A stretch of 64,000 nt of DNA from Candidatus Shapirobacteria bacterium (GCA_041663285.1 JBAZSP010000001.1:81838-145837), one strand, 5' to 3'; shown: positions 15,725 to 35,640, numbered from the stretch's first letter. Notes: generated by a model not told the origin, from the sequence alone. A program made the numbers and translations.

Positions 15725-15823
15725 GACCAGCATAGTAAAATATTTTTTTTGGCAACGGGAAACAGGTACTTAATATCCTCGACGGTTTATTTCCCAACTT
15801 CAGTCGTATATACTGATTTAGAT

Positions 15824-16393: not shown

Positions 16394-17034
16394 TGCCAAT
16401 ATCTTCATTTTCCCAATCAAAGCCGCTCTACGAATTCCTCCGAAAACAGCAGGATAATGAAAAATTCAACCGCGGATTGGAAATCACCGGTACCTTTATT
16501 TTAATTTCTTTTTTTCTTTTCTTCGCCATCAAGCCTACCGCCTACACCATCTCATCTCTTTTGGGTGATATAAGGTCGAAAGAGGAATTAATAAAAAAAA
16601 TGAGGACCAAAATCAATACCGTTATTCAAGCCCAGGAATCCTTTTCCCTTATCCAGGGTAAGTACCGCCTGGTTGACTCCAGTCTGCCCGATTCTGCCAG
16701 GTTCAACCAAGCTTACACCCAAGTTACTGGTTCCCTTCAGTCATCCGGCTTAAATCAATCCAAAATCCCTTTTTCTCTTCCCCTAAATTCTTCTTATCCG
16801 GCTTCTTCCCATGTGTCGGTTTTCGCCTCCAATTTGGCACTGGACGCCAGTTTCTCACAAGCTGTAAATTTTATTAATAAACTCACCAACAATCGACGAC
16901 TAGTTGACATCAAGTCGATTTCTTTTTTCCGTCCCAGTATTGGATCAGGCACCGATTCATCTTCTGGTACCATTAAGGTCAATTTTGGGATAGAGTATTT
17001 ATATTGGGACTCAACATCAAATGAAAAAAAGTAA
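16393..17034 (+). CDS. PilO-like bitopic membrane protein
   Basis: Short cytoplasmic N-terminus, one TM, coiled-coil, periplasmic domain. Start overlaps the upstream stop (ATGA coupling). Confidence 0.3.
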   Translation: MPISSFSQSKPLYEFLRKQQDNEKFNRGLEITGTFILISFFLFFAIKPTAYTISSLLGDIRSKEELIKKMRTKINTVIQAQESFSLIQGKYRLVDSSLPDSARFNQAYTQVTGSLQSSGLNQSKIPFSLPLNSSYPASSHVSVFASNLALDASFSQAVNFINKLTNNRRLVDIKSISFFRPSIGSGTDSSSGTIKVNFGIEYLYWDSTSNEKK

Positions 17035-17269
17035 GCTTTCCAGCTATCTCATAACCTTTTCCGTTATCACCTTCCTTACTATCTTTTTTCTAATTGCCGA
17101 AAACAGCTATTCCAAAATGGTCGGTCCCATCAAGATTGCCCAGGCCAACAATTTAATGACTCCGGTCGATCCTAATCTCGACTCCGATGTTGTTCTCCAA
17201 ATTGAAAATCGGGACGAATTTGTTTCCGATGATCAGGTAGTCATATCTTCTTTACCCGCCAATGATTAA
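17021..17269 (+). CDS. small membrane protein (82 aa)
   Basis: Single N-terminal TM; translationally coupled within the 15.8-18.6 kb gene string. Confidence 0.25.
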   Translation: MKKSKLSSYLITFSVITFLTIFFLIAENSYSKMVGPIKIAQANNLMTPVDPNLDSDVVLQIENRDEFVSDDQVVISSLPAND

Positions 17270-18622: not shown

Positions 18623-20578
18623 ATGATCAACTTAGGTAACGGAAAAAAGTATTATCCACTATTTACTGTACTATTTTTACTGTTATCTTTGGTTGGAGCC
18701 ATTGCCTTAGTCAAGACTTCCCAGGAAACCCGCAACAAAGCTGCCGGTCCTGCCGGCCAGTTAATCTGCCGTCGTGATAGTAACACCTCAATTACTTTAA
18801 TCAACAACACCGGCCGCGATATTCCTTACGAGATCCTTGAATTTAGAGGTTGCGACTGTAATGTCTCCCAATGTCTCACCGGTCGGACTAAATATATGCA
18901 GCCAACTGTTAGAAACGGTGAAACCAAAACCGAGTCAATGTCTCCGGCCAGGTGCGAAGCAGCTCAACTCGATATCAAAAGTCTGGTTACCGAATTTCCT
19001 TGTATCGACCCAAACACTGGAAGAAGCTGGGATGGTGGCACCGCCTTCGCCATTGACCGTGACTGTAGCATCTGTAATAATCCCACCCCCACCACCTCCT
19101 TGCCCACAGTATCCTGTAATGGCATCACCGTCACCAATGGTTCCGGCCAAGACATGAGCTCTTCTTCTGCAGAAGACCTGAAATTAGCTTTTCCGGGCGA
19201 GACTCTAAACATATCGTCAAGCTTTAGTCCAAATGGCTTACTTTTTTTTGCCAGGGTAAATGCTTATGCTACCAGAATCGATCTTCCTGCTAACCGGGTT
19301 GGTGATCTTTTCACTTTTCCGGCCAACAAGGTACCTGCATCCAATTCCGCCTCCGGCACAATTACCCTTCCCACCCAGCCTGGCACCTATTACTACAGCC
19401 TGGCTGCAAACGCCTATGAGAGTTCATCCTGCCGCTATCTTTGCGCCACCGATGGTAATTTCCGCCAAAACGGTGCCGGCACCGGTAGTTGTGATACATC
19501 AACTCAAGGCTGGCCTTCCGTCGGTCGTTGTACTAGTAATGGTTGTACCAAAAACTTAGCCATAAAAGTTATTCCCCAAAACTTATCCTGCACCAACTTA
19601 TCGATCACTAATTCCCAAGGTGTCAGTATCAGCTCCAGCAGCGCCGGTGACGTTAAAATCGTTAATCCAGGTGAGCGGTTAAATATTTCCACCAGTTTTT
19701 CCTCTTACGGTTTAGTCTATTATGCTCAGATGAAGAGTTTCGACGGTAATATTGCCGTCCAACCGGACAGAACCACCGGAATATTTACCAATATTCCTCA
19801 AAACGGCGTTCCTGCCTCCAGTAGCCCCATGTCGGATGGTTTTAACGCACCTGCTCAAGCCGGTACCTACATCTATCATTTCGCCACCAATGTTTTCGAT
19901 GATCCTCAATGTCAAATTCTATGTTCGGTCGATAGTAACCTCCGGCGTAATCCCTACGGTAGCGGTCATTGCAACGATCAGGCAACATCTCCCGCCTGGC
20001 CAATCATTAAACAATCCGGTTGTACCAGCGGTTGTCTTAAAAAATTAGTTATCCAGGTTAAAGAAACTTCTCCTTCTCCTTCTCCAACTCCCACTCCGAC
20101 TTCTACTTCTACTCCTTCTCCAACACCGACTACCACTCCCAGAAACACGCCGACTATCACCCCCACCCGGACGCCAACCCCAACTCCGACTACCCGCTTG
20201 ACGCCAACCCAAACCCCCACCGGAACCCTGAGACCTACCCAAACCCCCACTAACACCCCGGTTTCTTCGCCTACTCCAACCACTCCGGCTGAGTTAGTCT
20301 GTCAGTACTTGAAAGTCTACGACCAGAACTGGTCAGAGATTACCGACTTATCTACCTTAAAGCTTAATCAAAGGGTCTATTTTGCTACCAAAGAAACAGG
20401 AACCACCACTGCTACGCGGGCCAGGTTTAAGATTACTGTTAACGGTAATGCGTCTGACTGGCAAGAAACCTCCAGCAAAAATAGTCAGGGCGAACTCTAT
20501 ATTTCCTACACCATCAATCAGTCAGGTAGTTATGAAATCCAAGCCCAGGTATACCTGGAAGGCGTTGGACGGAGATAA
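18623..20578 (+). CDS. large secreted protein: N-terminal anchor, two tandem ~150-aa Cys-containing repeat domains, PT-linker, C-terminal domain
   Basis: N-terminus LLSLVGAIALVKTSQETRNKAAG. The internal repeat NGITVTNGSGQD...CTKNLAIKVIPQ parallels NLSITNSQGVSI...CLKKLVIQVKE. A PT-rich linker spans 20060-20290. Confidence 0.5.
   Translation: MINLGNGKKYYPLFTVLFLLLSLVGAIALVKTSQETRNKAAGPAGQLICRRDSNTSITLINNTGRDIPYEILEFRGCDCNVSQCLTGRTKYMQPTVRNGETKTESMSPARCEAAQLDIKSLVTEFPCIDPNTGRSWDGGTAFAIDRDCSICNNPTPTTSLPTVSCNGITVTNGSGQDMSSSSAEDLKLAFPGETLNISSSFSPNGLLFFARVNAYATRIDLPANRVGDLFTFPANKVPASNSASGTITLPTQPGTYYYSLAANAYESSSCRYLCATDGNFRQNGAGTGSCDTSTQGWPSVGRCTSNGCTKNLAIKVIPQNLSCTNLSITNSQGVSISSSSAGDVKIVNPGERLNISTSFSSYGLVYYAQMKSFDGNIAVQPDRTTGIFTNIPQNGVPASSSPMSDGFNAPAQAGTYIYHFATNVFDDPQCQILCSVDSNLRRNPYGSGHCNDQATSPAWPIIKQSGCTSGCLKKLVIQVKETSPSPSPTPTPTSTSTPSPTPTTTPRNTPTITPTRTPTPTPTTRLTPTQTPTGTLRPTQTPTNTPVSSPTPTTPAELVCQYLKVYDQNWSEITDLSTLKLNQRVYFATKETGTTTATRARFKITVNGNASDWQETSSKNSQGELYISYTINQSGSYEIQAQVYLEGVGRR
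20060..20290. repeat. Pro/Thr codon repeat (PT linker) inside CDS 18623-20578
   Basis: Encodes SPSPSPTPTPTSTSTPSPTPTTTP...; the antisense strand gives spurious ORFs 19978-20283 and 20045-20242. Confidence 0.8.
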
Positions 20579-20581
20579 AAT

Positions 20582-22072
20582 ATGTTTCAAGACACACTAA
20601 AAAATAATCTGAAAATTATCGCTATCGCAGTGTCTTTGCTGACTTTAGTTGGCGCCGTCGCTTTAGTAAAAAGAAGACAGGAATTGCGCCGAAGTGCCGC
20701 CGAAGAAGTAGTCAATACTTTCCGCAGTAAGCCCAACGACGGCCTATGGAAAAAAGTCAGCTATGATGCCTATGTCCAAAACGAGCCAGCTGGGTGTCAA
20801 GGTGTTTCCGCTTCACTCTGTCAGCCAAAACCATATCCGTCTGCCGGTAATTGGAATCAGTCGTCATATTCCGATACTGGTTGGCAAAGCGGTTACAGTG
20901 TCGATAGCTCTTGGTGGCAAGGTCAGGATTGGGCTTGCTCACGCAACTTTATTCAATCAGGAAGTCAGATAATTGGGCCGGTTGCTCCATCGAATGGTCT
21001 CTTTCCCAATATAAACGACACTACCGGCTTATACCGCCGAAAGTTTACCTTGCCCCAAGGTGTTGATATCGTTCGGGCTAACATCAAATTATTCAGCGAC
21101 AACAAGGTCATAGTCTACATTAATGGTAATCTGGTCAATAGTTCTTACAACGAACTTTGCTACGAATATTCCATTAATCCCAACTTCCTTCAGTCCGGCC
21201 AGAATATCTTAGCCATCCAGCTTTCCAACGATGCTGTTAACCAGGCCGATAATCCGCTGGGGGTTGCTTACGAGTTAAATGTCGTTACCTCCTCCGAACC
21301 TCCGATAGTAGTCCCCACCAATACTCCGATCCCCACTGTCACCTCTACCCCCTCCCCGGTTCCCACCTATAGTCCCTGTGTTATTAGATTCGATGTTTTG
21401 GTTACGCCCACTCCAACACTGACACCGACAAATACCCCAACCGGCTCGCCCTCACCCACCCCCACCAAAACTCCGACTCCAACCATCACGCCGACTCCCA
21501 CCAACACGCCCACCGGTACCCTAACCCCAACTCTTTCTCCCACCAATACTCCTACGAACACCCCAACTTCAACCCCAACTCCGACGCGTACTCCAACCCC
21601 CACCAACACGCCAACACCTACTAATACGCCCCGGCCCACTAATACCCCGGTTTTAAGTTCCACCCCCACCCCCACTTTTACCCCATCTCCGACTGGCACA
21701 CTTAGACCTACCAACACCTTAGTTCCCACTAACACCCTCCGGCCTACCAATACATTGATTCCTACCAGTACACCTCGGCCCACCTCAACTCCGGTACTTC
21801 GCTGTGGTTCTACTTGCGGCGACTCCATTGGTGGTCAATGTCCGGCCGATCATACCTGCTATCAAAACACCTGTGTTCTTAATGCTTGCCTAGAAGGTGT
21901 TCCTTGTGACGCCAGCCAGTGTGTTACTTTAAAGCCAACCAAAACCCCGACCCCAATCGTCGCCTCTCCCACCCGGATTACCCTGCCTGATGCTGGCTTT
22001 GACTTCCCCGTAAAGGCAATTGCCATTGTCGGCATCATCGTCACCCTCTTCGGTTTCCTGATTTTGTTGTAA
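20582..22072 (+). CDS. large secreted protein paralogous at the N-terminus to 18623-20578, with ~170-aa PT-linker, Cys-rich module and C-terminal LPDAG + hydrophobic anchor
   Basis: N-terminus [24 protein letters not shown] matches the LLxLVGAxALVK..QE.R..AA of the upstream protein. PT linker spans 21290-21800. Then [41 protein letters not shown]-terminus is [31 protein letters not shown]. Confidence 0.5.
21290..21800. repeat. Pro/Thr codon repeat (PT linker) inside CDS 20582-22072
   Basis: TPTxTPT units repeated over ~170 codons; the antisense strand gives spurious ORF 21367-21828. Confidence 0.8.
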
Positions 22073-22080
22073 ACTTACCT

Positions 22081-23004
22081 GTGACAAAAAATAACGGGTT
22101 CTTATCCTTGCTTGAAGCTTTGCGCCCTAGTCAGTGGATTAAAAATTTAAGTATCTTTTCGGCTGCCTTGCTAAACGGGCAGTTATTCGACACCGATATT
22201 TTTGTCAAAAGTGCTTTCGGCTTCGTCGCCTTCTGCCTATTGTCCTCGTCTTCCTATCTTATAAACGATCTCCAGGATATCGACAAAGACCGTCTCCACC
22301 CGTCAAAGAAGAACCGCCCACTGGCCAGGGGAGATGTTTCCAAATTTTCCGCCATCGCGACCTCAGTAGCTCTTTTTATTTCTGGCTTGTCAATGGCCTC
22401 ATTGGTCAACTCCGCCTTTTTACAACTTTCTTTTGTTTTTATTATCCTGCAATACAGTTACTCATTCCTCTTCAAGAAGAAAGCAATTATAGACATCATC
22501 GGCATTGCCCTGTTTTTCATAATCCGTGCATATGCCGGCGAAATTGCATCCGGCTATCACCTTCCGGTCTGGATAATGCTTACCGTCATATTCTTGTCGT
22601 TATTTATTGCCTCCGGTAAACGTCGTACCGAACTTTATGTTACCGGCAGAAAGGCCAGGTCAGCCATGAAAGGCTATGGTAAGGCATTGCTTAATTTTTA
22701 CACCACTATGTTTGCCGTTTCTACCCTAATTACGTACGCCATGTTTACCTTTCTGGAAGAGCCGGTTAGGTTTCAGGGCATAATTCACCATTTTTTACTG
22801 GAAAATTTTCCTTCTGCTATCGACCGCAAGTGGTACATGATAACCCTGTTACCGGTCATATTTGGCATTATGCGTTACGGTCAAATCATCTTCGAAATGC
22901 AGGAAGGGGAGAAGCCCGAAAGAATAATTACCACCGACATCCCTTTAATATTTTCAATTGCTCTTTGGGGCTTAATGATAATTACAGTTATCTATGTCCT
23001 CTAG
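22081..23004 (+). CDS. UbiA-family prenyltransferase, decaprenyl-phosphate phosphoribosyltransferase (DPPR synthase)-like
   Basis: ~8 TM helices, the Asp-rich motif NDLQDIDKDRLHPSKKNRPLARG (NDxxDxxxD) and N-terminus QWIKNLSIF as in the Rv3806c-type enzymes. Confidence 0.65.
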   Translation: MTKNNGFLSLLEALRPSQWIKNLSIFSAALLNGQLFDTDIFVKSAFGFVAFCLLSSSSYLINDLQDIDKDRLHPSKKNRPLARGDVSKFSAIATSVALFISGLSMASLVNSAFLQLSFVFIILQYSYSFLFKKKAIIDIIGIALFFIIRAYAGEIASGYHLPVWIMLTVIFLSLFIASGKRRTELYVTGRKARSAMKGYGKALLNFYTTMFAVSTLITYAMFTFLEEPVRFQGIIHHFLLENFPSAIDRKWYMITLLPVIFGIMRYGQIIFEMQEGEKPERIITTDIPLIFSIALWGLMIITVIYVL

Positions 23005-24574
23005 GGTTTGGCTGGCTCGGTCCTTCGCCGTTTTTCTTTTCCTTCTTGTTCTTCTGACGAGATTTGTAAAAGTCGACTGGGGAGATGGCTATTTTTTCCA
23101 TCCGGACGAAAACAATATGGCCCAGGCAGTCTCCCGGATGTCACCCGATGATCTGGACCCCCGGTTTTACGCATATGGCCAACTCCCTTTGTTTTTGTCC
23201 TACTTTTCTTTAAGGTTGGTCGGTTTGTCCAATAGTTTTGAAAATGCCGTTATCAGTCTAAGGTTGTGGTCTGGCCTTTTTTCTTCCATATCCGTGCTAT
23301 TTATTTACCTTATTGCTCAAAAACTTTTTCCTCCCCGAATCGCCCTGGCTTGTTTTGCTTTCTCCATTTTCTCTCCCGGTTTAATTCAGTCGGCTCATTT
23401 TGGAACCACCGAGTCAATCCTTCTTTTTGTTTTTGCTGCTAATTTATTTCTAAGTCTCAACTTTGTCTCAACCGGTAATCTGGCTCTATTATTAGTAGCG
23501 GCTATTATTAGCGGATTTGGCCTGGCAACCAAGGTTACTGCCCTCATTCTCATGGGCCCTGTTTACTTGGCCATTCTGGTGCACCTATTCCGGACAAAAA
23601 AAATTCTGCTAAGCTTGCTAACACTTCTACTCTTTACCTTACTTGCTTTGGTTATTTTTATTTTAGCCTCGCCCTTTAACTTAATTTCCCGCGCAGATTT
23701 TTTATCAACTTTAAAATACGAAGCATCGGTTGCCACCGGCACGTCCCCGGTGTTTTATACCCGTCAGTTTATCGGAACCTTGCCTTATATTTTTCAGCTG
23801 CTTCGGGTGTTTCCTTATGCCTTAGGCATCCCGCTTTGTTTGGCAGCCGCAATTGGCTGGTTTTTATCGTTAGTTCCATCAGTCGGCAAACACAAAACAT
23901 TTTGGTTTATTATTATTTTTTCGTCCCTAGCTTACTTTGTTTATAACGGTCAACTTTATACTAAGTGGACCCGTTTTATGGCGCCTCTATTTATTTTGGC
24001 TCCTCTATTTGCTGCCAACTTTATAAAAGCTTTTCCTGCGTCATCAAAAGTCAAAGCCTCTCTTTTGGTTCTTTGTCTGATTCCCGGCTGGCTTTTTTTA
24101 ACCATTTATTTTCAAAAAGACATTCGGGTTACTGCCTCCGAATGGCTGATTACTAACATAAAGTCCGGATCCACCGTTCTGTCTGAAGCCGGAAATGTCG
24201 TGAATCTTCCGGTTGGCGATCATCAGTTGATTGTCGTAAATTTTGATTTCTACGGTCTCGACGCCAGCCCTACTCTTCAACAGGAGCTGCCCAACCACCT
24301 TTATTCAGCTGATTATCTTTTGGTGCCCTCCCGCCGTATTTTTAAAAATCAATCCAGTCCCAGTTTTCCCTATAGTCAACGTTACTATCAAAAATTATTT
24401 TCCGGCGAGCTTGGGTTCTTACCGGTCAAAGTTTTTTCAAACCCTCTGGCCACACTGCTTGATACCGAAAATGCCGAAGAGACTTTTTCGGTGTTTGATC
24501 ATCCCAAAATCCGTCTTTATAAAAAAATAACCCCTAAATCCCAAGGTGAATACCAGAGTTTATTAACTCCTTAA
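22994..24574 (+). CDS. GT-C fold membrane glycosyltransferase (GT39/PMT/ArnT-like)
   Basis: 526 aa polytopic, first extracytoplasmic loop with the HPDE motif (FFHPDENNMAQAV), large C-terminal soluble domain. Confidence 0.6.
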   Translation: MSSRVWLARSFAVFLFLLVLLTRFVKVDWGDGYFFHPDENNMAQAVSRMSPDDLDPRFYAYGQLPLFLSYFSLRLVGLSNSFENAVISLRLWSGLFSSISVLFIYLIAQKLFPPRIALACFAFSIFSPGLIQSAHFGTTESILLFVFAANLFLSLNFVSTGNLALLLVAAIISGFGLATKVTALILMGPVYLAILVHLFRTKKILLSLLTLLLFTLLALVIFILASPFNLISRADFLSTLKYEASVATGTSPVFYTRQFIGTLPYIFQLLRVFPYALGIPLCLAAAIGWFLSLVPSVGKHKTFWFIIIFSSLAYFVYNGQLYTKWTRFMAPLFILAPLFAANFIKAFPASSKVKASLLVLCLIPGWLFLTIYFQKDIRVTASEWLITNIKSGSTVLSEAGNVVNLPVGDHQLIVVNFDFYGLDASPTLQQELPNHLYSADYLLVPSRRIFKNQSSPSFPYSQRYYQKLFSGELGFLPVKVFSNPLATLLDTENAEETFSVFDHPKIRLYKKITPKSQGEYQSLLTP

Positions 24575-24581
24575 TACCCTT

Positions 24582-26297
24582 ATGGCCAGACTACCCACCC
24601 GTTTCCACTATCTGCCCGTGTTAGTAGTTATTCTTTTACTGGGTTTCTTTTTCCGGTTTTACGGTCTTAATTGGGATCAAAGTCAGCATCTTCACCCAGA
24701 CGAAAGATTTTTAACCATGGTTGTTACCGCCATGAAATTACCCATCAACATTACGGAATATTTTGATCCGCAGCTTAGTTTACTCAATCCCTACAATCTT
24801 AATTTTAGCTTTTTTGTCTACGGCACTTTGCCCCTGGTTATAACCAAAATTATCGGCCAACTTCTAAATTACACCGAATACTGGAACGTATTTTTAGTCG
24901 GCCGGGTTTTGTCGGCTGTTCTTGATCTGGGTGTAGTTATTCTTATATACCGGATCTCCAAAACTATTTCGGGCCCAAAAGCAGCCCTGGGCGCCGCTTT
25001 TATCTATTCGGTTATGGTATTGCCCATTCAGCTGTCCCATTTTTTCGCCGTTGACACCTTTGTCAATTTTTTTGTTGTACTCACTCTTTTTCTAACTTTA
25101 AAATATCTTCCGAAACACCCCTTCCGCGGCTCACTTCTGGCTGGGGGGGCCTTCGCCCTTGCTCTAGCCTGCAAAATATCCGCCCTCTACTTTAGTCCGG
25201 TTATTGCGTTCTTGTTTGTATACAGCTTTCTCGTCTTCACTCCCAAGCTGTTGGCAAAAATCGTCAATCTGATAGTCTATGGCCTCTTATTTTTATTTAG
25301 TTGTTTCTTTATTTTCAGGCTAATTCAGCCACATTTGTTCCAAACTCAAAACATTTTTAGTTTTTCTCTTGAACCCCGCTTTATCAGCAATCTTAAAGAG
25401 CTAACCTCTTACTCCGATAAAAATAGTTGGTACCCCCCTGGCATCCAGTGGAAAACTACCCGCCCTCTTTTATTCCCCTTAACCAATCTGGCTTTGTGGG
25501 GACTTGGCGTTCCTCTTTTTCTTGTAACCTGTTTGGGTTTAATTCTGCAGTTCTGGGGTATCAAAAAGAATATAAAAAAACTATTTTGTTGCCCTTCCCT
25601 TTTTACTATAGCGGTCTTGTCTCTTTGGCTGGTTGCTTTCTTTTTATATCAAGGCAGCCAACACGTCAAAACCATGCGTTACTTTCTTATCCTTTACCCC
25701 ATACTGGCTATTTTGGCCGGAGAAGCTTTTGCCCGCCTTCTGGCTTTTTTTGTCAGAAAATCAACACTGCTGGCTGTCTTTTTCATCTTTGCCTTTCTTG
25801 CCTATCCTCTTTCTTTTATGTCCATTTATACTCACCAAATTACCCGGGTTGCTGCTTCCGAATGGATCTATCGTCATATTCCTTCCGGTTCAACCTTGAC
25901 TTATGAGCTCTGGGACGATCCTCTGCCTCTTTCCCTGCCCGGATACCCGGTTAATCAATATCAGCTTTTGGAGCTAAAAATGTTTGACAAAGATAGTCCG
26001 GAAAAGTGGCAGGATCTTTCTAAAAAATTATCCCAGGTCGATTATTTAGTTATGTCGTCCAACCGTTTGCACGGCACTATTCCGAAACATCCCGAATATT
26101 ATCCCCAGTCATCCGTCTTTTACCAGAGTTTGCTCGCCAATACCCACCCCGATTTTAAAAAAATTGCCGAGTTTACCTCCCGGCCTTGCTTTCCTCCAGT
26201 TGGTTCTCCTCTATTTTGCCTGGTCGACGACTTTGCCGAAGAAGCCTTCACTGTCTACGACCACCCTAAAGTACTGATCTATCAAAAAACATTATAG
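24582..26297 (+). CDS. GT-C fold membrane glycosyltransferase (GT39/PMT/ArnT-like), paralogue of 22994-24574
   Basis: 571 aa polytopic, loop-1 motif HLHPDERFLTMVV, C-terminal domain similar to the preceding gene (…FTVYDHPKVLIYQK vs …FSVFDHPKIRLYKK). Confidence 0.65.
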   Translation: MARLPTRFHYLPVLVVILLLGFFFRFYGLNWDQSQHLHPDERFLTMVVTAMKLPINITEYFDPQLSLLNPYNLNFSFFVYGTLPLVITKIIGQLLNYTEYWNVFLVGRVLSAVLDLGVVILIYRISKTISGPKAALGAAFIYSVMVLPIQLSHFFAVDTFVNFFVVLTLFLTLKYLPKHPFRGSLLAGGAFALALACKISALYFSPVIAFLFVYSFLVFTPKLLAKIVNLIVYGLLFLFSCFFIFRLIQPHLFQTQNIFSFSLEPRFISNLKELTSYSDKNSWYPPGIQWKTTRPLLFPLTNLALWGLGVPLFLVTCLGLILQFWGIKKNIKKLFCCPSLFTIAVLSLWLVAFFLYQGSQHVKTMRYFLILYPILAILAGEAFARLLAFFVRKSTLLAVFFIFAFLAYPLSFMSIYTHQITRVAASEWIYRHIPSGSTLTYELWDDPLPLSLPGYPVNQYQLLELKMFDKDSPEKWQDLSKKLSQVDYLVMSSNRLHGTIPKHPEYYPQSSVFYQSLLANTHPDFKKIAEFTSRPCFPPVGSPLFCLVDDFAEEAFTVYDHPKVLIYQKTL

Positions 26298-26300
26298 ACC

Positions 26301-27908
26301 ATGCCCAAGCTATTTCACCTAAGCGCCGCTTTTCTTTTTTTCTACTCTTCCCTTGGCCTTTTTTGGGCCCCTTTGTCGCCATTGCTGGCCAAAACACTTA
26401 TCGTCTCTTGGATGTTGATTTTTGTTTGGCTGCTGGCTTTTGGTATCTACCTTGAAATTCAGAATTTACGACAAAAAAAATATCCCATATATACCGCCAT
26501 TAGTCTCTTTATAACCTTTGCCATAATTTTATCCAATATTGCCAACGGCAAATATCTTTATGGCGAAATAGCCCAGGAAACTACTTGTTTATTTAATCAC
26601 CTCAGTGCTTCATCGGATCTTGGATTCAACCAAACTTGTCTTTTTGGTTATCCGGCCCGGCAGTTTATATTTTCCTCACTGCCATCCTTTTTTGGCCGGT
26701 CACTTTTTTTATTGAACGTTGGCCCATTCCTTTATTTTATAATCGGCCTTACCCTTTTTATCGCCGGTATTAGGTATTTTATTGATGATTCTCGAACCGG
26801 CGATCTCCTAACAGCATTGTTTATTTGGCTTTTACCCCATTCACCTCACTTTTTTCATCTTGTTTTTAGCTTTGAGCAGGCTCTCTTTCCCCTTTGTTTT
26901 ACTCTCGCCCTGTTAGGCTTGTTTTTTGCCTTCCAAAAAGCCAAAGACGTCTTTCCATTATTCGGCTTTGGCCAGGTTATCCTTCTTTTAACTTATTCCT
27001 ACACCCCCTCCTTGTCTGTCGTTCTTTTGTCTTTCGTGGCCTTATTTTATTTTTTGTTTCTCTATCGTCACCAGTTTAAGATAACCATCTCGCTATCACT
27101 TATAATCATCTTTTGCGCTATTAATCTCCTTAGCTCAGTGACCCTTCGTCAGGACCTTAACAGGCAGAATTCAAGCGCAAACCCTTCGGTATTATCGGCC
27201 AGCCTAACCGTCTTATCTCATGTTTTTTTTCAAAGCCAGGGAAAAAACTTTGTTGATCCCCAGATTCAAGCCTGGTTTATCCTGGCCACCGCCGCTCCGT
27301 TGCTTTTGGTTTATGGCTTCCGTCATTTTGTCATTTCTTTGTGGGTCGTTGCTACTATTTTACTTTCCGCTTTATCTCCTGGCTACGCCTCACCTCCCAT
27401 CGATTTTGCTCTACATCGGGCGATTATAATTATCCCTGTACTCTACGCCCAAAATCTAATAGCGCTAATTCATAGAAAAACTATCTGCCAGATTCTTCCG
27501 TTGCTTCAACTTTTGTTACTCCTTTTAGCTGTCAGCGGGGTGTCCAAATACTTGTCCTATACCCAAGGCCAGTCGATTTCTCCATATTATTCCGTCATTA
27601 CCTGGTTGGCCGAGAAAAATATTATTGTACCCAAAACTCCGGCTACCGTTTATTTTGCTTCGGGTATCAATTCCGGCATTACTTCGCTTCGTGACTTTAT
27701 GCCCTATTTTTATCCCAACGTTTCCACTCATAGTCTCGATCATCAATTTTGTCAGTTAAGTCAAACTATTCCTCCCGGCATCTACATATTCCCGTCAGAT
27801 TTTTCCTGTGGGTTACTCAACGACTCTCCCGCTTTTCGCCAGGAGCAGTATCTTGAACCTTCCACTCACCAAGTTTATTTAATAAAAAATATTAGCCAGG
27901 TTTTCTAA
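26301..27908 (+). CDS. polytopic membrane protein, probable additional GT-C-type glycosyltransferase
   Basis: 535 aa with more than 10 TM helices, translationally adjacent in the same gene string. No diagnostic motif recognised. Confidence 0.4.
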   Translation: MPKLFHLSAAFLFFYSSLGLFWAPLSPLLAKTLIVSWMLIFVWLLAFGIYLEIQNLRQKKYPIYTAISLFITFAIILSNIANGKYLYGEIAQETTCLFNHLSASSDLGFNQTCLFGYPARQFIFSSLPSFFGRSLFLLNVGPFLYFIIGLTLFIAGIRYFIDDSRTGDLLTALFIWLLPHSPHFFHLVFSFEQALFPLCFTLALLGLFFAFQKAKDVFPLFGFGQVILLLTYSYTPSLSVVLLSFVALFYFLFLYRHQFKITISLSLIIIFCAINLLSSVTLRQDLNRQNSSANPSVLSASLTVLSHVFFQSQGKNFVDPQIQAWFILATAAPLLLVYGFRHFVISLWVVATILLSALSPGYASPPIDFALHRAIIIIPVLYAQNLIALIHRKTICQILPLLQLLLLLLAVSGVSKYLSYTQGQSISPYYSVITWLAEKNIIVPKTPATVYFASGINSGITSLRDFMPYFYPNVSTHSLDHQFCQLSQTIPPGIYIFPSDFSCGLLNDSPAFRQEQYLEPSTHQVYLIKNISQVF

Positions 27909-28746
27909 TTTGATATACCAGGTTAACCGAGGTCGCGAAAACCTTGTTGGTATCGTTTAGCCTGTCAATTAATTCTATCGGCCAAAGTAGAAGCGACATC
28001 AGTTTCGATTTTTTCCGGTTTGGAGTAAACCGATTAAAGTTTTTTAACCAGCCCTTCTCGACCAAATTTTTACCGATTCCGTAAAAAACAAAATGGGAGA
28101 AGGGTAAACAAAAATGTGTTGCTCGCCACTTTAACTTTGTCTCAAAACCCGTTTTTAACAACTTTAACTCAATATCTTTTTCAGCATACAGCCTCTGATG
28201 ATCAGCCCAAATTCCCGACAACCACCAAATATGTGAAGGTAAGTGTTTTTTTGTAAGCCTCTCCAGTATCCAGTTGGCCGGATCCCATGCCCAGGGGTAG
28301 TTTATATTCGGAACAGTTATCATTACTATCCCACCCGGTTTTAGTACCCTAAAAATTTCCTTAAGGGCTAAGACGTCATCGGGGATGTGTTCGAGGATTT
28401 CTGACGCAATTACCCTATCGAAAAAATCATTTTTAAAAGGTAATTGGGTCGCGTCGGCCACCAAGAGTTTCTCATTACTGCTGGCCCCATTTTTTGCTTG
28501 CTCTAAGTATCTGGTATTAAGGTCTATACCCCAAATTTTTGTTTTCGGCTGTAATTTTGCCAAGTTATTAACGTAAAAGCCGCGACCACAACCCACCTCC
28601 AAAATTTTTTCTCTTCCTACTAAGCCAATATTTTTCAAAACCAGCCCAGCCCGTCTTTTATATGCCGGGTCAGGCTCGCGGGACAGTAATTTGTCAATTT
28701 GTATTAAATAGTTTTTCATATTTGTCCAACGTCCTTTGGTAATCAA
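27892..28746 (-). CDS. class I SAM-dependent methyltransferase
   Basis: Motif I ILEVGCGRGFYVNNLA and downstream motifs; 284 aa. The true start is probably the internal Met (MKNYLIQ...). Confidence 0.65.
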   Translation of the reverse strand: MITKGRWTNMKNYLIQIDKLLSREPDPAYKRRAGLVLKNIGLVGREKILEVGCGRGFYVNNLAKLQPKTKIWGIDLNTRYLEQAKNGASSNEKLLVADATQLPFKNDFFDRVIASEILEHIPDDVLALKEIFRVLKPGGIVMITVPNINYPWAWDPANWILERLTKKHLPSHIWWLSGIWADHQRLYAEKDIELKLLKTGFETKLKWRATHFCLPFSHFVFYGIGKNLVEKGWLKNFNRFTPNRKKSKLMSLLLWPIELIDRLNDTNKVFATSVNLVYQIRKPG

Positions 28747-29824
28747 ACACCTTTTTTACTGTCGCCGACCTTGACTTAAAATTCCTGCCCAAACCCTCAA
28801 TTATTCCCCGGCCCAGACTCTTTTCGTCTCTGGCTTTCACTATCAGCCCAAAGCCGGTCTCCTGCACCACCCATCTGGCTCCGGGGATGTTGGTACAGAC
28901 CGATGGGGTTCCTGCCAGCATTGCTTCAATTTGCGATGACGGGAAACAATCAGTTCGTGATGGTTGTACATAAAGGCTAAGTGATTTATAAAACGCAAAC
29001 AGCTCTCGGGGGTCATTGATAAGTCCTAAGAGTTTTAAATGTTTTTTGTAACGTTTTATCAAGCCTTCAATTTTTTGCCAAAACTTTTCGTAGTTAATTT
29101 TGTAATCTCCGGCCAAAACCATCATGGCTCTTGGGAATCTCCTTATGACTATCGGAATCGCTTCAAGCAGGTAATCGACTCCTTTCTCTTCAACAAATCT
29201 GCCGGAAAAACCAATCAATATTTTATTTTCCAGGCCGTACTTTTGTTTAAAATTAGCCACCTCGCTTGCCGAAACACTTGGTATTTCAAAAAGTGGCAGT
29301 ATCACCCTCCACTTGTCCTCACACCCCAATAGCAATTTCGACTGCTTGGCATAATCTTCTGATTGAATCAAAACCGCCCTGGCTCTTTTGATCGACCATC
29401 TTGTAGTTAAATAATATACAGCTTCCGCTATTTTGGCTATTACTCCACCATCTTTTGGCAATACTAGATCACCGTTGTGGATCAGGTAAAGCTTTTTTTT
29501 GAAGATTCCGGCGACCATGGCTGTTAACACTACCTGTTGCAGGGGGAGATATGCCACCACCGACTCATTCTCCCTTACCAGCTTGATCAGGGAAAATAAA
29601 AACCCGGGAGTAACCACGCTCCTTAACAGCCGGAACCAATATTTAAGCCTGACCACCTTTACTCCGGTAATGTTTTCTGTTAGCGGCGACTCCCTATTGT
29701 GTTGACTGGTTAGCACTGTCACTTCATGGTCCCGTTTCGCCAGGCCTTCAGCCACCCGGGCGGCATACTGGGTCAGTCCTGTCCAGTGAGGCCGATAAAA
29801 AGTCAACACAAAAAGCAGCTTCAT
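28694..29824 (-). CDS. GT-B fold glycosyltransferase, family 4-like
   Basis: N-terminus MKLLFVLTFYRPHWTGL (internal start chosen to avoid overlap), C-terminal EX7E-type region GRFVEEKGVDYLLEA. Confidence 0.7.
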   Translation of the reverse strand: MKLLFVLTFYRPHWTGLTQYAARVAEGLAKRDHEVTVLTSQHNRESPLTENITGVKVVRLKYWFRLLRSVVTPGFLFSLIKLVRENESVVAYLPLQQVVLTAMVAGIFKKKLYLIHNGDLVLPKDGGVIAKIAEAVYYLTTRWSIKRARAVLIQSEDYAKQSKLLLGCEDKWRVILPLFEIPSVSASEVANFKQKYGLENKILIGFSGRFVEEKGVDYLLEAIPIVIRRFPRAMMVLAGDYKINYEKFWQKIEGLIKRYKKHLKLLGLINDPRELFAFYKSLSLYVQPSRTDCFPSSQIEAMLAGTPSVCTNIPGARWVVQETGFGLIVKARDEKSLGRGIIEGLGRNFKSRSATVKKVFDYQRTLDKYEKLFNTN

Positions 29825-29825
29825 A

Positions 29826-30368
29826 TTATGTTCGTATATCGCTAAGATAATTAATTCCTTTAGCCTCAAGACAGGCGTGTTTCTGTTTGCCAAAACAATA
29901 GATTTTAGTTTTTAAATTTTTCGCCAAATAATCAGCTATCAGGTTATCGTCATCCACATACCATTCCGCTTTGATTTTTTTTAGTATTTTTTCCTTAAAC
30001 AAATACGGTTGTTCGTTCTTCGAGTTTAAATAAATCTTATGGAAATAACTATTGATCCCTCTTCTTTCCAGCCATGCCCGGGTTTCATTTTTTAAAAAGC
30101 TATACCGTCCGGAAATTATGTAAAGGCGGTATCGTTGGCTTCGGCTAAGATCCGCCACTGCCTTAAGATTTTCTTTAATCGGTGGTCTAAAAAGATAAAA
30201 GTGCGACAACTTTCTCACTGCAATTTCAAATCGGGAGGAGGGGATTCGGTAATTAAGTGTTTTTTCTTTCGTCCCCCTAAACCATTTCTCAATCAAGGAT
30301 TTCGGAATTAACGGTGGCTTATCAACAATCACCCCATCAAGGTCGAAAGCAATTCTTAATCGTTTCAT
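29826..30368 (-). CDS. HAD-superfamily hydrolase/phosphatase
   Basis: Motif I IAFDLDGVIVD at the N-terminus, 180 aa. Confidence 0.5.
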   Translation of the reverse strand: MKRLRIAFDLDGVIVDKPPLIPKSLIEKWFRGTKEKTLNYRIPSSRFEIAVRKLSHFYLFRPPIKENLKAVADLSRSQRYRLYIISGRYSFLKNETRAWLERRGINSYFHKIYLNSKNEQPYLFKEKILKKIKAEWYVDDDNLIADYLAKNLKTKIYCFGKQKHACLEAKGINYLSDIRT

Positions 30369-30471
30369 TATTATTTAATAAATTAATCCTTACAATCTCT
30401 CCGGTCATCGGCCGTGTGTTTTATTATTACATGAACATTACCAAAACCCCAGCATCGTGTAAAATACCCTT

Positions 30472-32658
30472 ATGGTTGCCGATTTTAAGTATATCGTTTT
30501 TTGGTGGTTAACCATCTTCCTGATTGGTTCTCTGTCTTTACCGCTGATCTTTACTGTGTTTAGGGATTTTTACGACAAGGGTTATATTTTTAGCAAAATC
30601 GCCGGTATCGCCATCCTGACCTATATTATATTTGTTTTGGGTATTTTTAAATTTTTGCCCTTTTCCAGCAGCTCGATATTTTTTATTTTATTCTTTGTCC
30701 TGCTGGCAAATATTTTATATCTTTCCAAAAAAGATAATTTTGCCAAATTTAAAAAAGATCTCCTGCTTCACCACCGGCAAATAATATCCCAGGAGTTGGC
30801 CTTTTTTGGTGTTTTAACCCTCTGGTCTTTTATCCGTGGCCATTCGCCCGACATTGATAACCTCGAAAAGTTTATGGACTGGGGATTTGTAAATTCTGTT
30901 TTAAGATCTACCTTCATGCCCCCGGCCGACATGTGGTATTCCGGTGAACCGATCAATTACTACTATTTCGGCCACCTCATTTTTGGCGTATTAACCAAAA
31001 TTTCGGGCATCGATTCCGCTATCACCTACAACCTTTCCATCGCCACAGTTTGCGCCCTTACCTTTGTTAGCGGCTTTTCAATAACGTCCAATCTTGTTGT
31101 TCACTTTAATGTCTTCAAAGCTGTTATAAAAAAGAAACTTGACGTCCGGAATATCCGTTTAAAACAGGCGGTTTTGGCCGGTGTATTTTCGGCCTTTCTA
31201 CTGACCTTCGGTGGCAATTTCCACGCCGTCTACAAGATTATTAAGCTTGATATAAGTCAAAATAACGGCCGTTTTGTCCTTACCAAAGATGCTCTTAACC
31301 AGGCTGCCAATTCTTATTGGTATCCAGACGCCACCCGTTTTATCGGTTTTGATCCCGATATAAAAGATAAGACTATCCACGAATTTCCTCTCTATAGCTT
31401 TGTGGTGGCCGACCTTCACGGTCACATGAACGATATTCCGGTTATCTTGTTTTTCATTGCCTTTCTTTTTGCCTTTAGCCTGTCACCGGTAAAGGCTCCA
31501 TCTTGGAAATTAATTGTCCCATCAGGCCTGATATTATCAATTGCTTTCATGACCAACGCCTGGGACTTTTTTGTTTACGGCCTAACCTTTGCCGTTTGTC
31601 TCTTTTTTATCCATCTTCACCATACTGATTTTTATCAGGCAATAAGGTCAATATTGATAAACGGGTTTTTAACTGTTCTCTGTTGGTACCTTTTCACCTT
31701 ACCCTTTACTCTTAATTTCATCCCCATGGCCGACGGAGTCAGGCTGGTCGATTATCGAACTCCGTTTTACCAGCTTTTTGTTTTATATGGTGGTTTCTGG
31801 CTGATTTGCTTGCCTCTTTTAGGTTATTTTTTCTATCGCTTTTTAAAAGACAGGTCGTTTATCAAAAAAATGATCCCGTCCGACGTCATTGCGTTGGCCT
31901 TGATTTTAGTTGCTACTTTATTAGTGCTTCTTCCCGAGATTATTTATCTTAAAGATATATATATATACGAGCATCGTCGGGCCAACACCATGTTTAAGCT
32001 TGTTTATCAGGCGTTTATTCTCTACTCACTTGTAGCTGGGTATGCTGTTTACCGTTTGTCTGCCTCAATTCGGCCGCGGATGATTAAATTCCTATACAAA
32101 GTAATTGTGCTAATAGTTTTTACCAGCCATTTAATTTACCCGTTTTTCGCCATCAAGTCAGCCTATGGTAGCCTTTCTTCATACAAAGGTCTGTATGGTC
32201 TAGGTTTCTTAAAGACAGCTCACCCGGATAGTTTTGAAGCTGTCAAATGGATTAATGCCAACATTTCCGGCCAGCCAGTAATCCTTGAAGCCGCCGGGGA
32301 TAGTTATACCTACTATAATCATATTTCAGCCGCGACTGGCGTCCCCACTGTCCTGGGCTGGCTGGTTCACGAATGGCTTTGGCACGGAGGTCAAAAAGAC
32401 CCAAATTCCTCCAAGTACCTAAACAAGCTGGACTGTGGTGATCCCTGCAGTGTCCGCGGTCCTGATGTTCAAAGAATTTACGAATCCCAAGACGTTGTCG
32501 AAGTTCGTTCTTTGCTCCAAAAATACAATGTCGATTATGTCTTTGTCGGCGATAAGGAGCTCGAAAAATATCAAAGCTTAAATGTCGACGTAATTTCGGG
32601 GCTTAGCCAAATTGTTTTTGAATCCGGTAAAACCAAACTATACAAGATTACTAAATAA
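30472..32658 (+). CDS. large polytopic membrane protein of the DUF2298 / YYY-domain family (GT-C-like)
   Basis: 728 aa with the signature segment GEPINYYYFGHLIFGVLTKISG, as in the Chloroflexi/archaeal YYY-domain proteins. Confidence 0.6.
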   Translation: MVADFKYIVFWWLTIFLIGSLSLPLIFTVFRDFYDKGYIFSKIAGIAILTYIIFVLGIFKFLPFSSSSIFFILFFVLLANILYLSKKDNFAKFKKDLLLHHRQIISQELAFFGVLTLWSFIRGHSPDIDNLEKFMDWGFVNSVLRSTFMPPADMWYSGEPINYYYFGHLIFGVLTKISGIDSAITYNLSIATVCALTFVSGFSITSNLVVHFNVFKAVIKKKLDVRNIRLKQAVLAGVFSAFLLTFGGNFHAVYKIIKLDISQNNGRFVLTKDALNQAANSYWYPDATRFIGFDPDIKDKTIHEFPLYSFVVADLHGHMNDIPVILFFIAFLFAFSLSPVKAPSWKLIVPSGLILSIAFMTNAWDFFVYGLTFAVCLFFIHLHHTDFYQAIRSILINGFLTVLCWYLFTLPFTLNFIPMADGVRLVDYRTPFYQLFVLYGGFWLICLPLLGYFFYRFLKDRSFIKKMIPSDVIALALILVATLLVLLPEIIYLKDIYIYEHRRANTMFKLVYQAFILYSLVAGYAVYRLSASIRPRMIKFLYKVIVLIVFTSHLIYPFFAIKSAYGSLSSYKGLYGLGFLKTAHPDSFEAVKWINANISGQPVILEAAGDSYTYYNHISAATGVPTVLGWLVHEWLWHGGQKDPNSSKYLNKLDCGDPCSVRGPDVQRIYESQDVVEVRSLLQKYNVDYVFVGDKELEKYQSLNVDVISGLSQIVFESGKTKLYKITK

Positions 32659-34590: not shown

Positions 34591-35640
34591 ATGATCACCC
34601 GACTTGTTTATAGCCAGGAAAAAAAACAATTTAATCAATTAATCCGCCACCCGGTCCAAACCTGGGAGTGGGGTGATTTTCAAATAACTCAAGGCCACCA
34701 GGTTTACCGGCTTGGTGTTTTTGAAAAAAACAAAATGATCTCGGCTTATAGCCTTAGCTTTCACCGCCTTCCCCGGCTCAATTTTTCTGTCGGCACAATT
34801 CTAAGGGGCCCCATGCCAGATTTAGAAATGCTGACCAATATTCAAAAAATTGGCCGTGACGAAAACGCCCTTTTTATCAAATTGGAACCCGACGTTATTC
34901 ACCAGAGCTTCTCCGACCTTGGCATAGGGAGTGTCATCTCACCCAGCCCCGATCTTCCGAATTTGGTGGTTTCTCCCAAAGTTGCCTTTTACCCCCATAC
35001 CTACTTTGTTGATTTAACCAAAACCGAAAACGAGCTTATCGAAGCTCTTCATTCCAAGACTCGTTACAATATTAAAGTAGCTAATCGTCACGGGGTAAAG
35101 ATCCGGGAGATGACGACCGATCAGGGATTCGAGATTTATCTTCGGCTACTTTTTGAAACAACCAAGCGCCAGGGTTTTTATCTTCACACCCCCGAGTATC
35201 ACCAACAACTTTGGCAGACGCTCAAAGCCTCCGGTATGGTAAAAATTATGATAGCCACCTATCAGGATTTAGCCCTGGCCGCCTTTATGCTCTTTAAGCA
35301 GCAGGACCGTCTATATTACCCCTACGGCGCTTCTTCCGACGTTCATCGGGAGGTCATGGCGCCGACACTGTTAATGTGGGAATGTCTTATGCTTGGTAAA
35401 AAATTAGGCTGCAATACTTTCGACATGTGGGGTAGCTTAGGGCCAAACGCTCAAGCCACCGAGCCTGGCTTTGGCTTCCATCGCTTTAAACAGGGTTTTG
35501 GCGGCCAATTATCCCAATATGTTGGTACTTACGATCTGGTTATCGACCCTCAAAAATATCAGCTCTACAATCTCGTTGATCGTTGGCGTTGGCGTCTACT
35601 TCGGTTCAAGGCCAATCTTTTTAAAACTACCACCGACTAA
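34591..35640 (+). CDS. FemX/FemAB-family aminoacyl-tRNA-dependent peptidoglycan peptide-bridge transferase
   Basis: N-terminus WEWGDFQ...YSLSFHRL..FSVGTILRGPMPD and C-terminus YYPYGASSDVHREVMAPTLLMWECLMLGKKLGCNTFDMWG collinear with the FemX fold, 349 aa. Confidence 0.65.
   Translation: MITRLVYSQEKKQFNQLIRHPVQTWEWGDFQITQGHQVYRLGVFEKNKMISAYSLSFHRLPRLNFSVGTILRGPMPDLEMLTNIQKIGRDENALFIKLEPDVIHQSFSDLGIGSVISPSPDLPNLVVSPKVAFYPHTYFVDLTKTENELIEALHSKTRYNIKVANRHGVKIREMTTDQGFEIYLRLLFETTKRQGFYLHTPEYHQQLWQTLKASGMVKIMIATYQDLALAAFMLFKQQDRLYYPYGASSDVHREVMAPTLLMWECLMLGKKLGCNTFDMWGSLGPNAQATEPGFGFHRFKQGFGGQLSQYVGTYDLVIDPQKYQLYNLVDRWRWRLLRFKANLFKTTTD

Follow-up and report, generated by a model that had tools for sequence, protein, structure and literature searches.

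A predicted polyprenyl-phospho-pentofuranose pathway in a probable cell-envelope glycosylation locus of Candidatus Shapirobacteria

Overview of the gene cluster

A 64,000-nt stretch of DNA from a Candidatus Shapirobacteria bacterium (GCA_041663285.1, JBAZSP010000001.1:81838–145837), referred to here as the window, contained a gene cluster at positions 22081–32658 in which a UbiA-fold enzyme was followed by a series of polytopic membrane proteins. The cluster is probably a cell-envelope glycosylation locus of the Shapirobacteria, using a Candidate Phyla Radiation (CPR) form of the polyprenyl-phospho-pentofuranose pathway and presumably delivering ribofuranose. Its first enzyme grouped with decaprenyl-phosphate phosphoribosyltransferase (DPPRS), and the three proteins encoded directly after it are predicted to have the GT-C glycosyltransferase fold. 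The host, an uncultured, ultra-small bacterium, belongs to the CPR (Patescibacteria). CPR cells live attached to a host, and their envelope and pili mediate the contact. To our knowledge, the surface glycans of these bacteria are essentially unstudied.

An open reading frame (ORF) map with domain assignments placed all genes of the cluster where a preliminary description of the window had put them, including those for the methyltransferase, the GT4, the HAD-like protein, the DUF2298 protein, and a further PMT_2 gene downstream. The genes of the cluster were as follows.

22081..23004, plus strand: UbiA-fold DPPRS/PPPRS-like enzyme, PPPRS being polyprenyl-phosphate 5-phosphoribosyltransferase; GTG start (Pfam UbiA, 4.4e-23; NCBIfam NF008978)
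22994..24574, plus strand: GTC1, GT-C protein with an HPDE motif, FHPDENN (PMT_2, 3.9e-9; PMT, 1.6e-6)
24582..26297, plus strand: GTC2, GT-C protein with an HPDE motif, LHPDERF, full-length paralogue of GTC1 (PMT_2, 1.8e-9)
26301..27908, plus strand: GTC3, predicted GT-C fold, no Pfam model (AlphaFold model and Foldseek)
27892..28746, minus strand: class I S-adenosylmethionine-dependent methyltransferase, at the end of the minus-strand unit (Methyltransf_11, 5.5e-23)
28694..29893, minus strand: GT4 glycosyltransferase, GT-B type, nucleotide-sugar dependent (Glycos_transf_1, 2e-24; Glyco_transf_4, 2.6e-10)
29826..30368, minus strand: small HAD-like protein, similar to BT0820, with a DxDG motif; heads the minus-strand unit (HAD_2, 1.6e-3; NF046079, 6.1e-5)
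30472..32658, plus strand: DUF2298/Chlor_Arch_YYY polytopic membrane protein with a C-terminal extracytoplasmic domain (PF10060, 1e-94; TIGR03662, 7.1e-149)

The UbiA-fold enzyme

The UbiA homologue contained the NDxxDxxxD motif as NDLQDIDKD (residues 62–70). When it was compared with NCBIfam models, the DPPRS models gave E-values of 7e-60, 6e-52, and 4e-47, whereas all other UbiA subfamilies (among them heme o synthase, DGGGP synthase, 4-hydroxybenzoate prenyltransferases, MqnP, and chlorophyll synthase) gave about 1e-13 or weaker. The DPPRS equivalog model, NF008978, matched with 202.6 bits (7.3e-60) and its cutoff of 207 was narrowly missed, and NF008977 matched with 177 bits for a cutoff of 234. 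The best PDB match was Rv3806c of M. tuberculosis (8j8j, 3e-37), which was ahead of AfUbiA (6.5e-9) by 28 orders of magnitude, ApUbiA (6e-5) and DGGGPS (1.2e-4) being weaker still.

In Rv3806c, the 5-phosphate of phosphoribosyl pyrophosphate (PRPP) is contacted by residues K28, Y70, and Y157, the ribose by N73 and Q135, the Mg2+ ion by N73 and D77, the pyrophosphate by R22, K87, R90, Y138, and K143, and decaprenyl phosphate by K28, Y157, and K191; ordinary UbiA enzymes do not share the phosphoribose site (PMC10994848). In the alignment, residues R22, K28, Y70, N73, D77, K87, R90, Q135, Y138, K143, and K191 were all retained in the window enzyme, as R15, K21, Y59, N62, D66, K76, R79, Q124, Y127, K132, and K180, respectively, and the aligned contact positions were invariant across 42 Shapirobacteria orthologues. 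Residue Y157 was replaced by F146, a substitution that also occurs in some mycobacteria. Residue K208, which adds to the positive charge of the extramembrane cleft in Rv3806c (PMC10994848), was not retained, and this position was variable among the relatives.

Because the profile scores, the PDB scores, and the retained contact residues all favour DPPRS, the homologue does not group with the menaquinone or ubiquinone prenyltransferases, nor with the haem or archaeal-lipid enzymes, but with DPPRS, as its resemblance to a DPPR synthase had first suggested. Judged from the sequence, its activity is likely to be the PRPP-dependent transfer of phosphoribose to a polyprenyl phosphate.

The GT-C proteins

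The start of GTC1 overlapped the stop of the UbiA gene by 11 nt. GTC1 passed the Pfam PMT cutoff (28.3 bits for a cutoff of 22.7) and also that of PMT_2, had no MIR domains, and is named "glycosyltransferase family 39 protein" by NCBI. Eukaryotic PMT members also carry MIR domains, and the donor of PMT enzymes is polyprenyl-phospho-mannose. The AlphaFold2 model of GTC1 had a pLDDT of 91.4, and all 28 of its Foldseek matches in the PDB at E<=1e-3 were GT-C enzymes. The fold neighbours included STT3/AglB/PglB, ArnT (TM-scores 0.52/0.51), Pmt4 (0.51/0.54), ALG9, DPY19, and EmbA/B. In loop 1, where the Asp-Glu motif was present, residues D38 and E39 of the HPDE sequence opened the first extracytoplasmic helix (residues 37–48) after the first transmembrane helix of the model, and residues D38, E39, H135, and E140 were invariant in 36 orthologues.

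GTC2 was aligned with the GTC1 orthologues by hhalign over 504 columns, with a probability of 100% and an E-value of 1.6e-75. The two proteins shared the HPDE motif, an IQxxHF motif, and a C-terminal AEExFxVxDxP motif. When GTC1, GTC2, GTC3, and the DUF2298 protein were searched against PDB chains by sequence profile, only ricin and ArnT appeared, at E-values of about 0.1–1, and for GTC1 and GTC3 the kinship with solved GT-C structures was visible by fold comparison alone.

GTC3 gave no match to Pfam, NCBIfam, or PDB sequences, and hhalign gave no useful signal between GTC3 and GTC1 or GTC2. Its AlphaFold2 model (pLDDT 90.7, pTM 0.93) had only GT-C enzymes among its top 21 Foldseek matches in the PDB: ALG12, PglB, ArnT (TM-scores 0.54/0.54), STT3, AftA, and Emb. 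Residues E89 and D106 were nearly invariant in the GTC3 family. A HMMER scan put this family at no fewer than 414 representative clusters (50% identity); GTC3 itself had only three close homologues. The family was marked by the conserved motifs GE(T)TQE and GYPARQ (proteins P0121–P0271), and 1 of the 51 members examined barely touched the PMT_2 model. Relatives of GTC3 were found in three similar loci (L048, L050, and L051), and GTC3 was a variable component of the locus. Family members were also seen next to PMT_2 genes in an Omnitrophota metagenome-assembled genome (MAG; L047), and beside a small GT2 and a methyltransferase in another locus (L049).

On the evidence of the Pfam matches, the paralogy of GTC1 and GTC2, and the models of GTC1 and GTC3, these three are GT-C-fold proteins, GTC3 being a member of a GT-C family that has no annotation. 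An acidic residue opening the first extracytoplasmic loop helix accompanied the fold in GTC1 and GTC3, and in GTC2 by its paralogy to GTC1. The three polytopic GT-C-type proteins that the preliminary description placed after the UbiA gene were therefore supported by Pfam, paralogy, and fold models, the claim holding for the third because its model matched only GT-C structures; the HPDE loop motif it noted in two of them was likewise found. Its fourth GT-C paralogue, at 35637–37172 (GTC4), was indeed a PMT_2 gene, although not a close paralogue of GTC1 or GTC2, as the hhalign probability with GTC2 was 47%. GTC4 was detected by tblastn in none of the related loci; where this region was visible, one of them (L014) ran directly from femAB to gatA.

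The DUF2298 protein, which was conserved in all related loci, matched its family over both models listed above and is accordingly a YYY-domain protein, as had been described. The GT-C likeness that had also been ascribed to it was not demonstrated: comparison with GT-C proteins by hhalign gave probabilities of 28% (C-terminal domain), 4.7%, and 0.4%, and there was no PDB match. In the literature searched, nothing was found on the function of DUF2298.

Conservation in related loci and sister lineages

A scan of species-representative genomes gave 43 loci with UbiA proteins of 61–75% identity, whose informative labels were nearly all Candidatus Shapirobacteria or Patescibacteria MAGs. The 33 loci with both UbiA and DUF2298 were counted. 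A separate Roseateles locus (L044), whose high GC content produced many spurious ORFs, was left aside. The common order was murJ, a pilN-like gene, a small gene, PT1 (a surface protein gene, described below), a variable stretch, UbiA, GTC1, GTC2, a second variable stretch, DUF2298, uvrD, and femAB. UbiA, GTC1, and GTC2 were adjacent in 32/33 loci, GTC1 adjoining UbiA in 32 and GTC2 being present in 32. The second variable stretch held additional GT-Cs of the PMT_2 type, methyltransferases (FkbM among them), GT4 and DUF362 genes, and in some cases the HAD gene, and looks like a glycan-diversity region. In one locus (L037), UbiA, a PAP2 phosphatase gene, and DUF2298 were directly adjacent.

When metagenomes were searched with the DUF2298 alignment, 80 loci of 37–58% identity were found. 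Among those with at least 7 kb of upstream sequence, UbiA and PAP2 were both present in 15 and both absent from 19, with no discordant locus, so that PAP2 accompanied UbiA in 15/15. The two genes behaved as a unit, which fits a synthase–phosphatase pair. The 19 loci without UbiA belonged to a more distant lineage, with DUF2298 about 40% identical, which kept the order of the flanks (murJ inverted, pilN-like gene, PT1, DUF2298, uvrD, and femAB).

In several loci of this sister lineage, an FAD amine-oxidase-like gene of about 425 aa (Amino_oxidase, 1e-24 to 1e-29) occupied the position of UbiA, just upstream of the HPDE GT-Cs (L107:1372–2655, L098:5182–6396, and L136:6766–8061; similar genes in L121, L125, L129, and L135). 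Its position suggests that the donor-supply module was swapped in the sister lineage.

Further genes recurred in or near the variable parts of the loci. DUF362 genes were found in the variable stretch of L005 (10650–11723) and of about eight other loci, and one lay just downstream of the cluster, at 38953–39852 of the window. A PIN-domain toxin gene and small partner genes were inserted in the variable stretch of L050 (7855–8507). Two small genes at 15749–17034 of the window, one with a weak PilN match (6.4e-4), were always found between murJ and PT1 in the sampled lineages and may be a conserved envelope-related or pilus-related pair.

Gene arrangement and flanking genes

The flanking features of the window that bear on the cluster were as follows.

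14087..15724, plus strand: MurJ, flippase of lipid-linked sugars of the MOP superfamily, context only (Pfam MurJ, 1.6e-78; TIGR01695, 271.5 bits)
17262..18569, plus strand: PT1, surface protein with an N-terminal transmembrane helix, fn3/Big_13 domain, Pro/Thr/Ser-rich tail, and C-terminal transmembrane helix (Big_13, 1.1e-8)
18623..20578, plus strand: PT2, secreted or anchored protein with a 100-residue Pro/Thr/Ser linker, nt 20009–20308 (translation and composition scan)
20582..22072, plus strand: PT3, protein with a 164-residue Pro/Thr linker, nt 21311–21802, and a C-terminal LPDAG followed by a hydrophobic tail (translation and composition scan)
35637..37172, minus strand: GTC4, PMT_2-type GT-C protein between femAB and gatC (PMT_2, 1.1e-9)

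The plus-strand run PT1-PT2-PT3-UbiA-GTC1-GTC2-GTC3 started after a gap of 227 nt and was spaced by 53, 3, 8, −11, 7, and 3 nt, the largest interval being 53 nt. The minus-strand unit of HAD, GT4, and methyltransferase genes converged on GTC3 and diverged from DUF2298. Promoter-like sites were not enriched in the promoter scan (29 found, 32.3 expected); terminator-like sites were somewhat above expectation (33 and 21.6, respectively), yet lay mostly inside genes, and that scan was uninformative. Nearly all genes of the window were on the plus strand, the GC skew was negative in nearly all 2-kb bins, and no tRNA gene was found in the 64 kb.

Sugar identity and flippase

Pfam scans of the window took in all ORFs of 120 aa or more that were not nested. 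Among these ORFs, neither a DprE1/DprE2-like pair nor any other sugar epimerase was found, in agreement with the preliminary description, and no DprE1/DprE2 gene was found between UbiA and DUF2298 among the assignable ORFs of the related loci. Without an epimerase, ribose is the default sugar, in line with the earlier suggestion that the sugar may stay ribose or another pentose. No prs gene for PRPP supply, which had been proposed as a check, no flippase of the GtrA, SMR, or MATE type, and no polyprenyl-phospho-hexose synthase of the GT2 family were found in the same ORF set.

The only flippase-type gene near the cluster was murJ, whose synteny was conserved. It was considered as a dedicated MATE-type flippase of the MOP superfamily and set aside: the protein exceeded the TIGR01695 equivalog cutoff of 235.55 bits, and the gene was therefore treated as that of the lipid II flippase.

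Candidate acceptors

Almost every related locus had PT1 upstream of UbiA, and PT3 ended 8 nt before UbiA in the window. The PT-linker proteins, co-oriented with UbiA and tightly spaced, are candidates for the acceptors of the glycan. PT2 (18623–18760), PT3 (20582–20710), and two proteins of other loci (L105:4567–5268 and L101:4221–5737) had an N-terminal hydrophobic helix and, after it, a conserved motif resembling Q-E-x-R-(R/K), as in a 44-residue segment (letters not shown) and VKQRQEIRK. The motif is a possible signal for sorting or processing that is specific to the lineage. The LPDAG and hydrophobic tail of PT3 (21980–22072) resembled a sortase sorting signal, and a sortase-domain protein was encoded at 1076–2479, 19 kb upstream.

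The same donor pathway could instead build a lipid-anchored or peptidoglycan-anchored pentofuranan, similar to arabinan and extended stepwise by several GT-Cs, rather than an O-glycan of the PT linkers; this alternative is less likely than not. Two conserved GT-Cs with variable extras and DUF2298 resemble the multi-enzyme Emb/Aft assembly, the locus lies between the peptidoglycan genes murJ and femAB, and variable cassettes of methyltransferase and GT4 genes are typical of polysaccharide diversity regions. The window, on the other hand, contained no genes for polymer priming, ligation (LCP), or export, and the PT-rich proteins are the co-oriented and closely spaced neighbours of UbiA. In Gram-positive bacteria, moreover, GT-Cs are documented to O-glycosylate disordered regions rich in Ser/Thr (PMC11092751).

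Phosphatases and the minus-strand unit

In all 33 related genome loci with UbiA, a PAP2 gene of about 190 aa abutted DUF2298 upstream on the same strand (e.g. L015:16614–17201). The encoded proteins had the motifs KxxxxxxRP, PSGH, and SRxxxxxHxxxD (Pfam PAP2, 9e-12), and Rv3807c, the DPPR phosphatase of mycobacteria, belongs to the PAP2 superfamily. A profile of the Shapirobacteria PAP2 proteins matched none of the six frames of the window, which was the only well-covered locus with UbiA and without PAP2. Here the HAD-GT4-methyltransferase unit abutted DUF2298 directly, with about 104 nt between HAD and DUF2298 (30369–30471). The same arrangement of methyltransferase, GT4, HAD, and DUF2298 was seen in one metagenome locus (L058), which was cut upstream.

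The PAP2 proteins of the relatives might have another role, namely the recycling of undecaprenyl diphosphate in the service of DUF2298, with the HAD protein performing a cytoplasmic sugar-phosphate step for GT4 and neither acting on the phosphoribosyl lipid. Their best NCBIfam match was an undecaprenyl-diphosphate phosphatase (1.7e-11), their similarity to the Rv3807c orthologue did not extend beyond the PAP2 motifs (56 residues, E=3e-7), and PAP2 always abutted DUF2298 and not UbiA, as HAD always adjoined GT4 or DUF2298. This explanation is nonetheless rather doubtful, for PAP2 tracked UbiA without exception while DUF2298 was present either way, and Rv3807c, for which DPPR phosphatase activity is known, likewise belongs to PAP2 and is encoded next to DPPRS (PMC11127046).

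The HAD-like protein of the window was weakly matched by HAD_2, by the BT0820 family model NF046079, and by PDB entry 2obb (E=0.16). It did not resemble the HAD-IB phosphatase encoded after DPPRS on a plasmid of Lactococcus, and it matched neither the HAD-UbiA fusion model NF006088 nor the HAD-IB models. HAD was present in 3/33 genome loci with UbiA, and preceded DUF2298 in 14 of the 43 metagenome loci without PAP2 versus none of the 26 with it. The proposal that it is a DPPR-phosphatase analogue was not supported, since the protein was of the BT0820 type and formed a unit with GT4 and the methyltransferase; a phosphoribose phosphatase of the PRP type was rejected for the same lack of HAD-IB or HAD-UbiA similarity.

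GT4 and the methyltransferase were found in 17/33 and 7/33 related loci, respectively. The full-length NCBIfam matches of GT4 (XrtY-associated glycosyltransferase and WcaI) began at residue 24, a methionine, and the Pfam domains at residue 38; from these alignments, the true start is likely the ATG at 29824. We regard the HAD-GT4-methyltransferase unit as a cytoplasmic module of its own, variable in occurrence, within the glycan-diversity region.

In other phyla, the DPPRS genes were flanked by differing phosphatases, which were a PHP-domain protein, a HAD-IB protein, or PAP2 (e.g. Haloterrigena, L055 4685–10608; Lactococcus, L052 4395–7727). These differences suggest non-orthologous replacement of the 5-phosphatase step.

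Proposed pathway

In the pathway that we favour, the UbiA enzyme would move 5-phosphoribose from PRPP to polyprenyl phosphate at the cytoplasmic face of the membrane, like Rv3806c and Citrobacter ORF15; this first step has the support of the sequence. The 5-phosphate would then be removed, by PAP2 as the candidate in the relatives, and in the window by a phosphatase that may be encoded elsewhere or, less likely, by the BT0820-like HAD protein. The lipid-linked ribofuranose would be turned outward by a putative flippase. Outside the membrane, the GT-Cs, whose fold is seen in the models, would use it as their donor: GTC1, translationally coupled to UbiA, and its paralogue GTC2, with GTC3 and perhaps DUF2298 in accessory roles. 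That several GT-Cs are encoded points to more than one linkage, or to a short chain of pentofuranose units. As acceptors one may, more speculatively, consider the upstream co-oriented Pro/Thr-rich surface proteins or a wall-linked polymer.

Several observations weigh against this pathway. The window lacked PAP2, any recognisable flippase except a bona fide MurJ, and prs among the ORFs scanned, and the bit score of the UbiA homologue was slightly below the NCBIfam equivalog cutoff. The GT-Cs had no specific similarity to those linked to DPPRS elsewhere, nor to Emb/Aft beyond the fold. Genes of the GTC1/GTC2 type were found with DUF2298 in 11 of the 19 sister-lineage loci without UbiA or PAP2 within 10 kb; the GT-Cs thus need no PPPRS product intrinsically, and their link to this donor is one that we infer. 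In addition, the 20-kb region is syntenic throughout the lineage, so that the adjacency of the genes and the co-occurrence of UbiA and PAP2 may reflect a single ancestral gain or loss, which limits the statistical weight of the patterns of UbiA, PAP2, and the GT-Cs.

The persistence of the GT-Cs in those 11 loci would also suit a different donor. The HPDE GT-Cs, with DUF2298, would then be PMT/ArnT-like enzymes that take a polyprenyl-phospho-hexose, or some non-pentose donor supplied by genes outside the locus, and act as O-mannosyltransferases or O-glucosyltransferases for the PT-linker proteins, UbiA and PAP2 being a lineage-specific addition that serves one transferase or another product. 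The GT39 name of GTC1, its passing of PMT and PMT_2, and the GTC3-family member beside a small GT2 in L049 accord with such a role; it is unlikely all the same, given the overlap of the UbiA stop with the GTC1 start, the adjacency of the pair in 32/33 loci, the lack of a GT2 polyprenyl-phospho-hexose synthase among the window ORFs, and the consuming GT-C that typically flanks known PPPRS genes.

In a bold and rather improbable extension of the pentofuranose pathway, Shapirobacteria would ribofuranosylate Pro/Thr-linker proteins or a wall polymer by means of an enzyme set not described before: PPPRS, a PAP2 5-phosphatase, two HPDE GT-Cs, GT-Cs without a Pfam model, and a DUF2298 transferase. 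The adjacent UbiA-PAP2-DUF2298 triad of L037 would be the minimal system, and the system would be modular, the sister lineages having exchanged UbiA and PAP2 for the FAD oxidoreductase with or without HAD and retained the transferases. If this were true, DUF2298/Chlor_Arch_YYY would gain its first function, as a transferase of lipid-linked sugars.

A predicted lipid-linked ribofuranose donor derived from PRPP, together with candidate transferases and acceptors, offers a concrete biochemical handle on CPR surface glycans. The pathway would thereby reach another phylum and include GT-C families new to it; no new principle is involved. DUF2298 and the Pfam-less GT-C family of GTC3 are flagged as possible members of such pathways.

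Comparison with known systems

For the addition of alpha-pentofuranose, a pathway has been established that combines a PPPRS, to which a HAD phosphatase is fused, with a MATE flippase and a GT-C; it has been linked to mycobacterial arabinan synthesis and to pilin arabinosylation in Pseudomonas (Kelly et al. 2024, PMC11127046). That report noted that other bacteria have "more elaborate systems with multiple GT-Cs", and it did not mention the CPR. In the literature searched, no account of such a pathway, or of decaprenyl or DPPRS, was found for the CPR, and a preprint on the Saccharibacteria pilus described glycosylation in that group as unexplored. The gene logic of UbiA followed by GT-Cs, for which the preliminary description had drawn an analogy with Emb/Aft, matched the characterised systems (PMC11127046). 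It was also seen in annotated plasmid records with differing phosphatases and flippases, namely PAP2-DPPRS-AftB in Tsukamurella, DPPRS-HAD-IB-GtrA in Lactococcus, DPPRS-DprE1/2-like-GT39 in Chondrinema, and a further record from the haloarchaeon Haloterrigena.

The O1/O2 system of Citrobacter youngae is composed of ORF15 (PPPRS-PRP), the MATE flippase ORF14, and the GT136 GT-C ORF12 (PMC11127046). The window cluster shared with it a UbiA-fold enzyme with the same catalytic motif, predicted here to be PRPP-dependent, adjoining a GT-C, and, as in serotype O1, no epimerase was found, so that ribofuranose would stay as it is. In contrast to Citrobacter, the window had a free HAD protein of another type in place of the fused phosphoribose-phosphatase domain, no MATE, SMR, or GtrA gene, and three to five GT-C-type genes, apparently of other sequence families (PMT_2 match or none), instead of one, in a CPR host without O-antigen.

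The mycobacterial decaprenyl-phospho-arabinose pathway comprises the DPPRS Rv3806c, the PAP2 protein Rv3807c, DprE1/DprE2, Rv3789, and the Emb/Aft GT-Cs. Rv3806c was the best structural and sequence match of the window enzyme, several GT-Cs lay downstream, and the relatives paired UbiA with PAP2. The window differed in having no PAP2 and GT-Cs that were like Emb/Aft only at the level of the fold, and no arabinose is expected because DprE1/DprE2 were not found.

In Pseudomonas aeruginosa Pa5196/PA7, a PPPRS homologue and the GT-C TfpW attach D-arabinofuranose to Ser/Thr of the type IV pilin. This system, in which a GT-C O-glycosylates a surface protein with a PPPRS-derived lipid-linked pentofuranose, is the model for the PT-linker acceptors. 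It has epimerases and a pilin gene next to tfpW, unlike the window, where the neighbours were the PT-linker proteins and weakly PilN-like genes. Similarly to the actinobacterial Pmt/GT39 enzymes and streptococcal GT-Cs, GTC1 passed PMT and PMT_2, had the loop-1 Asp-Glu, and adjoined long Pro/Thr linkers. The Pmt/GT39 enzymes, however, use a polyprenyl-phospho-hexose made by a GT2, whereas no such synthase was found in the window and a PPPRS-type enzyme heads the operon.

The predicted donor chemistry of the Shapirobacteria cluster is thus already known from these systems, while its new elements are the absence of a dedicated flippase gene, the PAP2 protein that takes the place of a fused HAD phosphatase in the relatives, the GT-C families, and the biology of the host.

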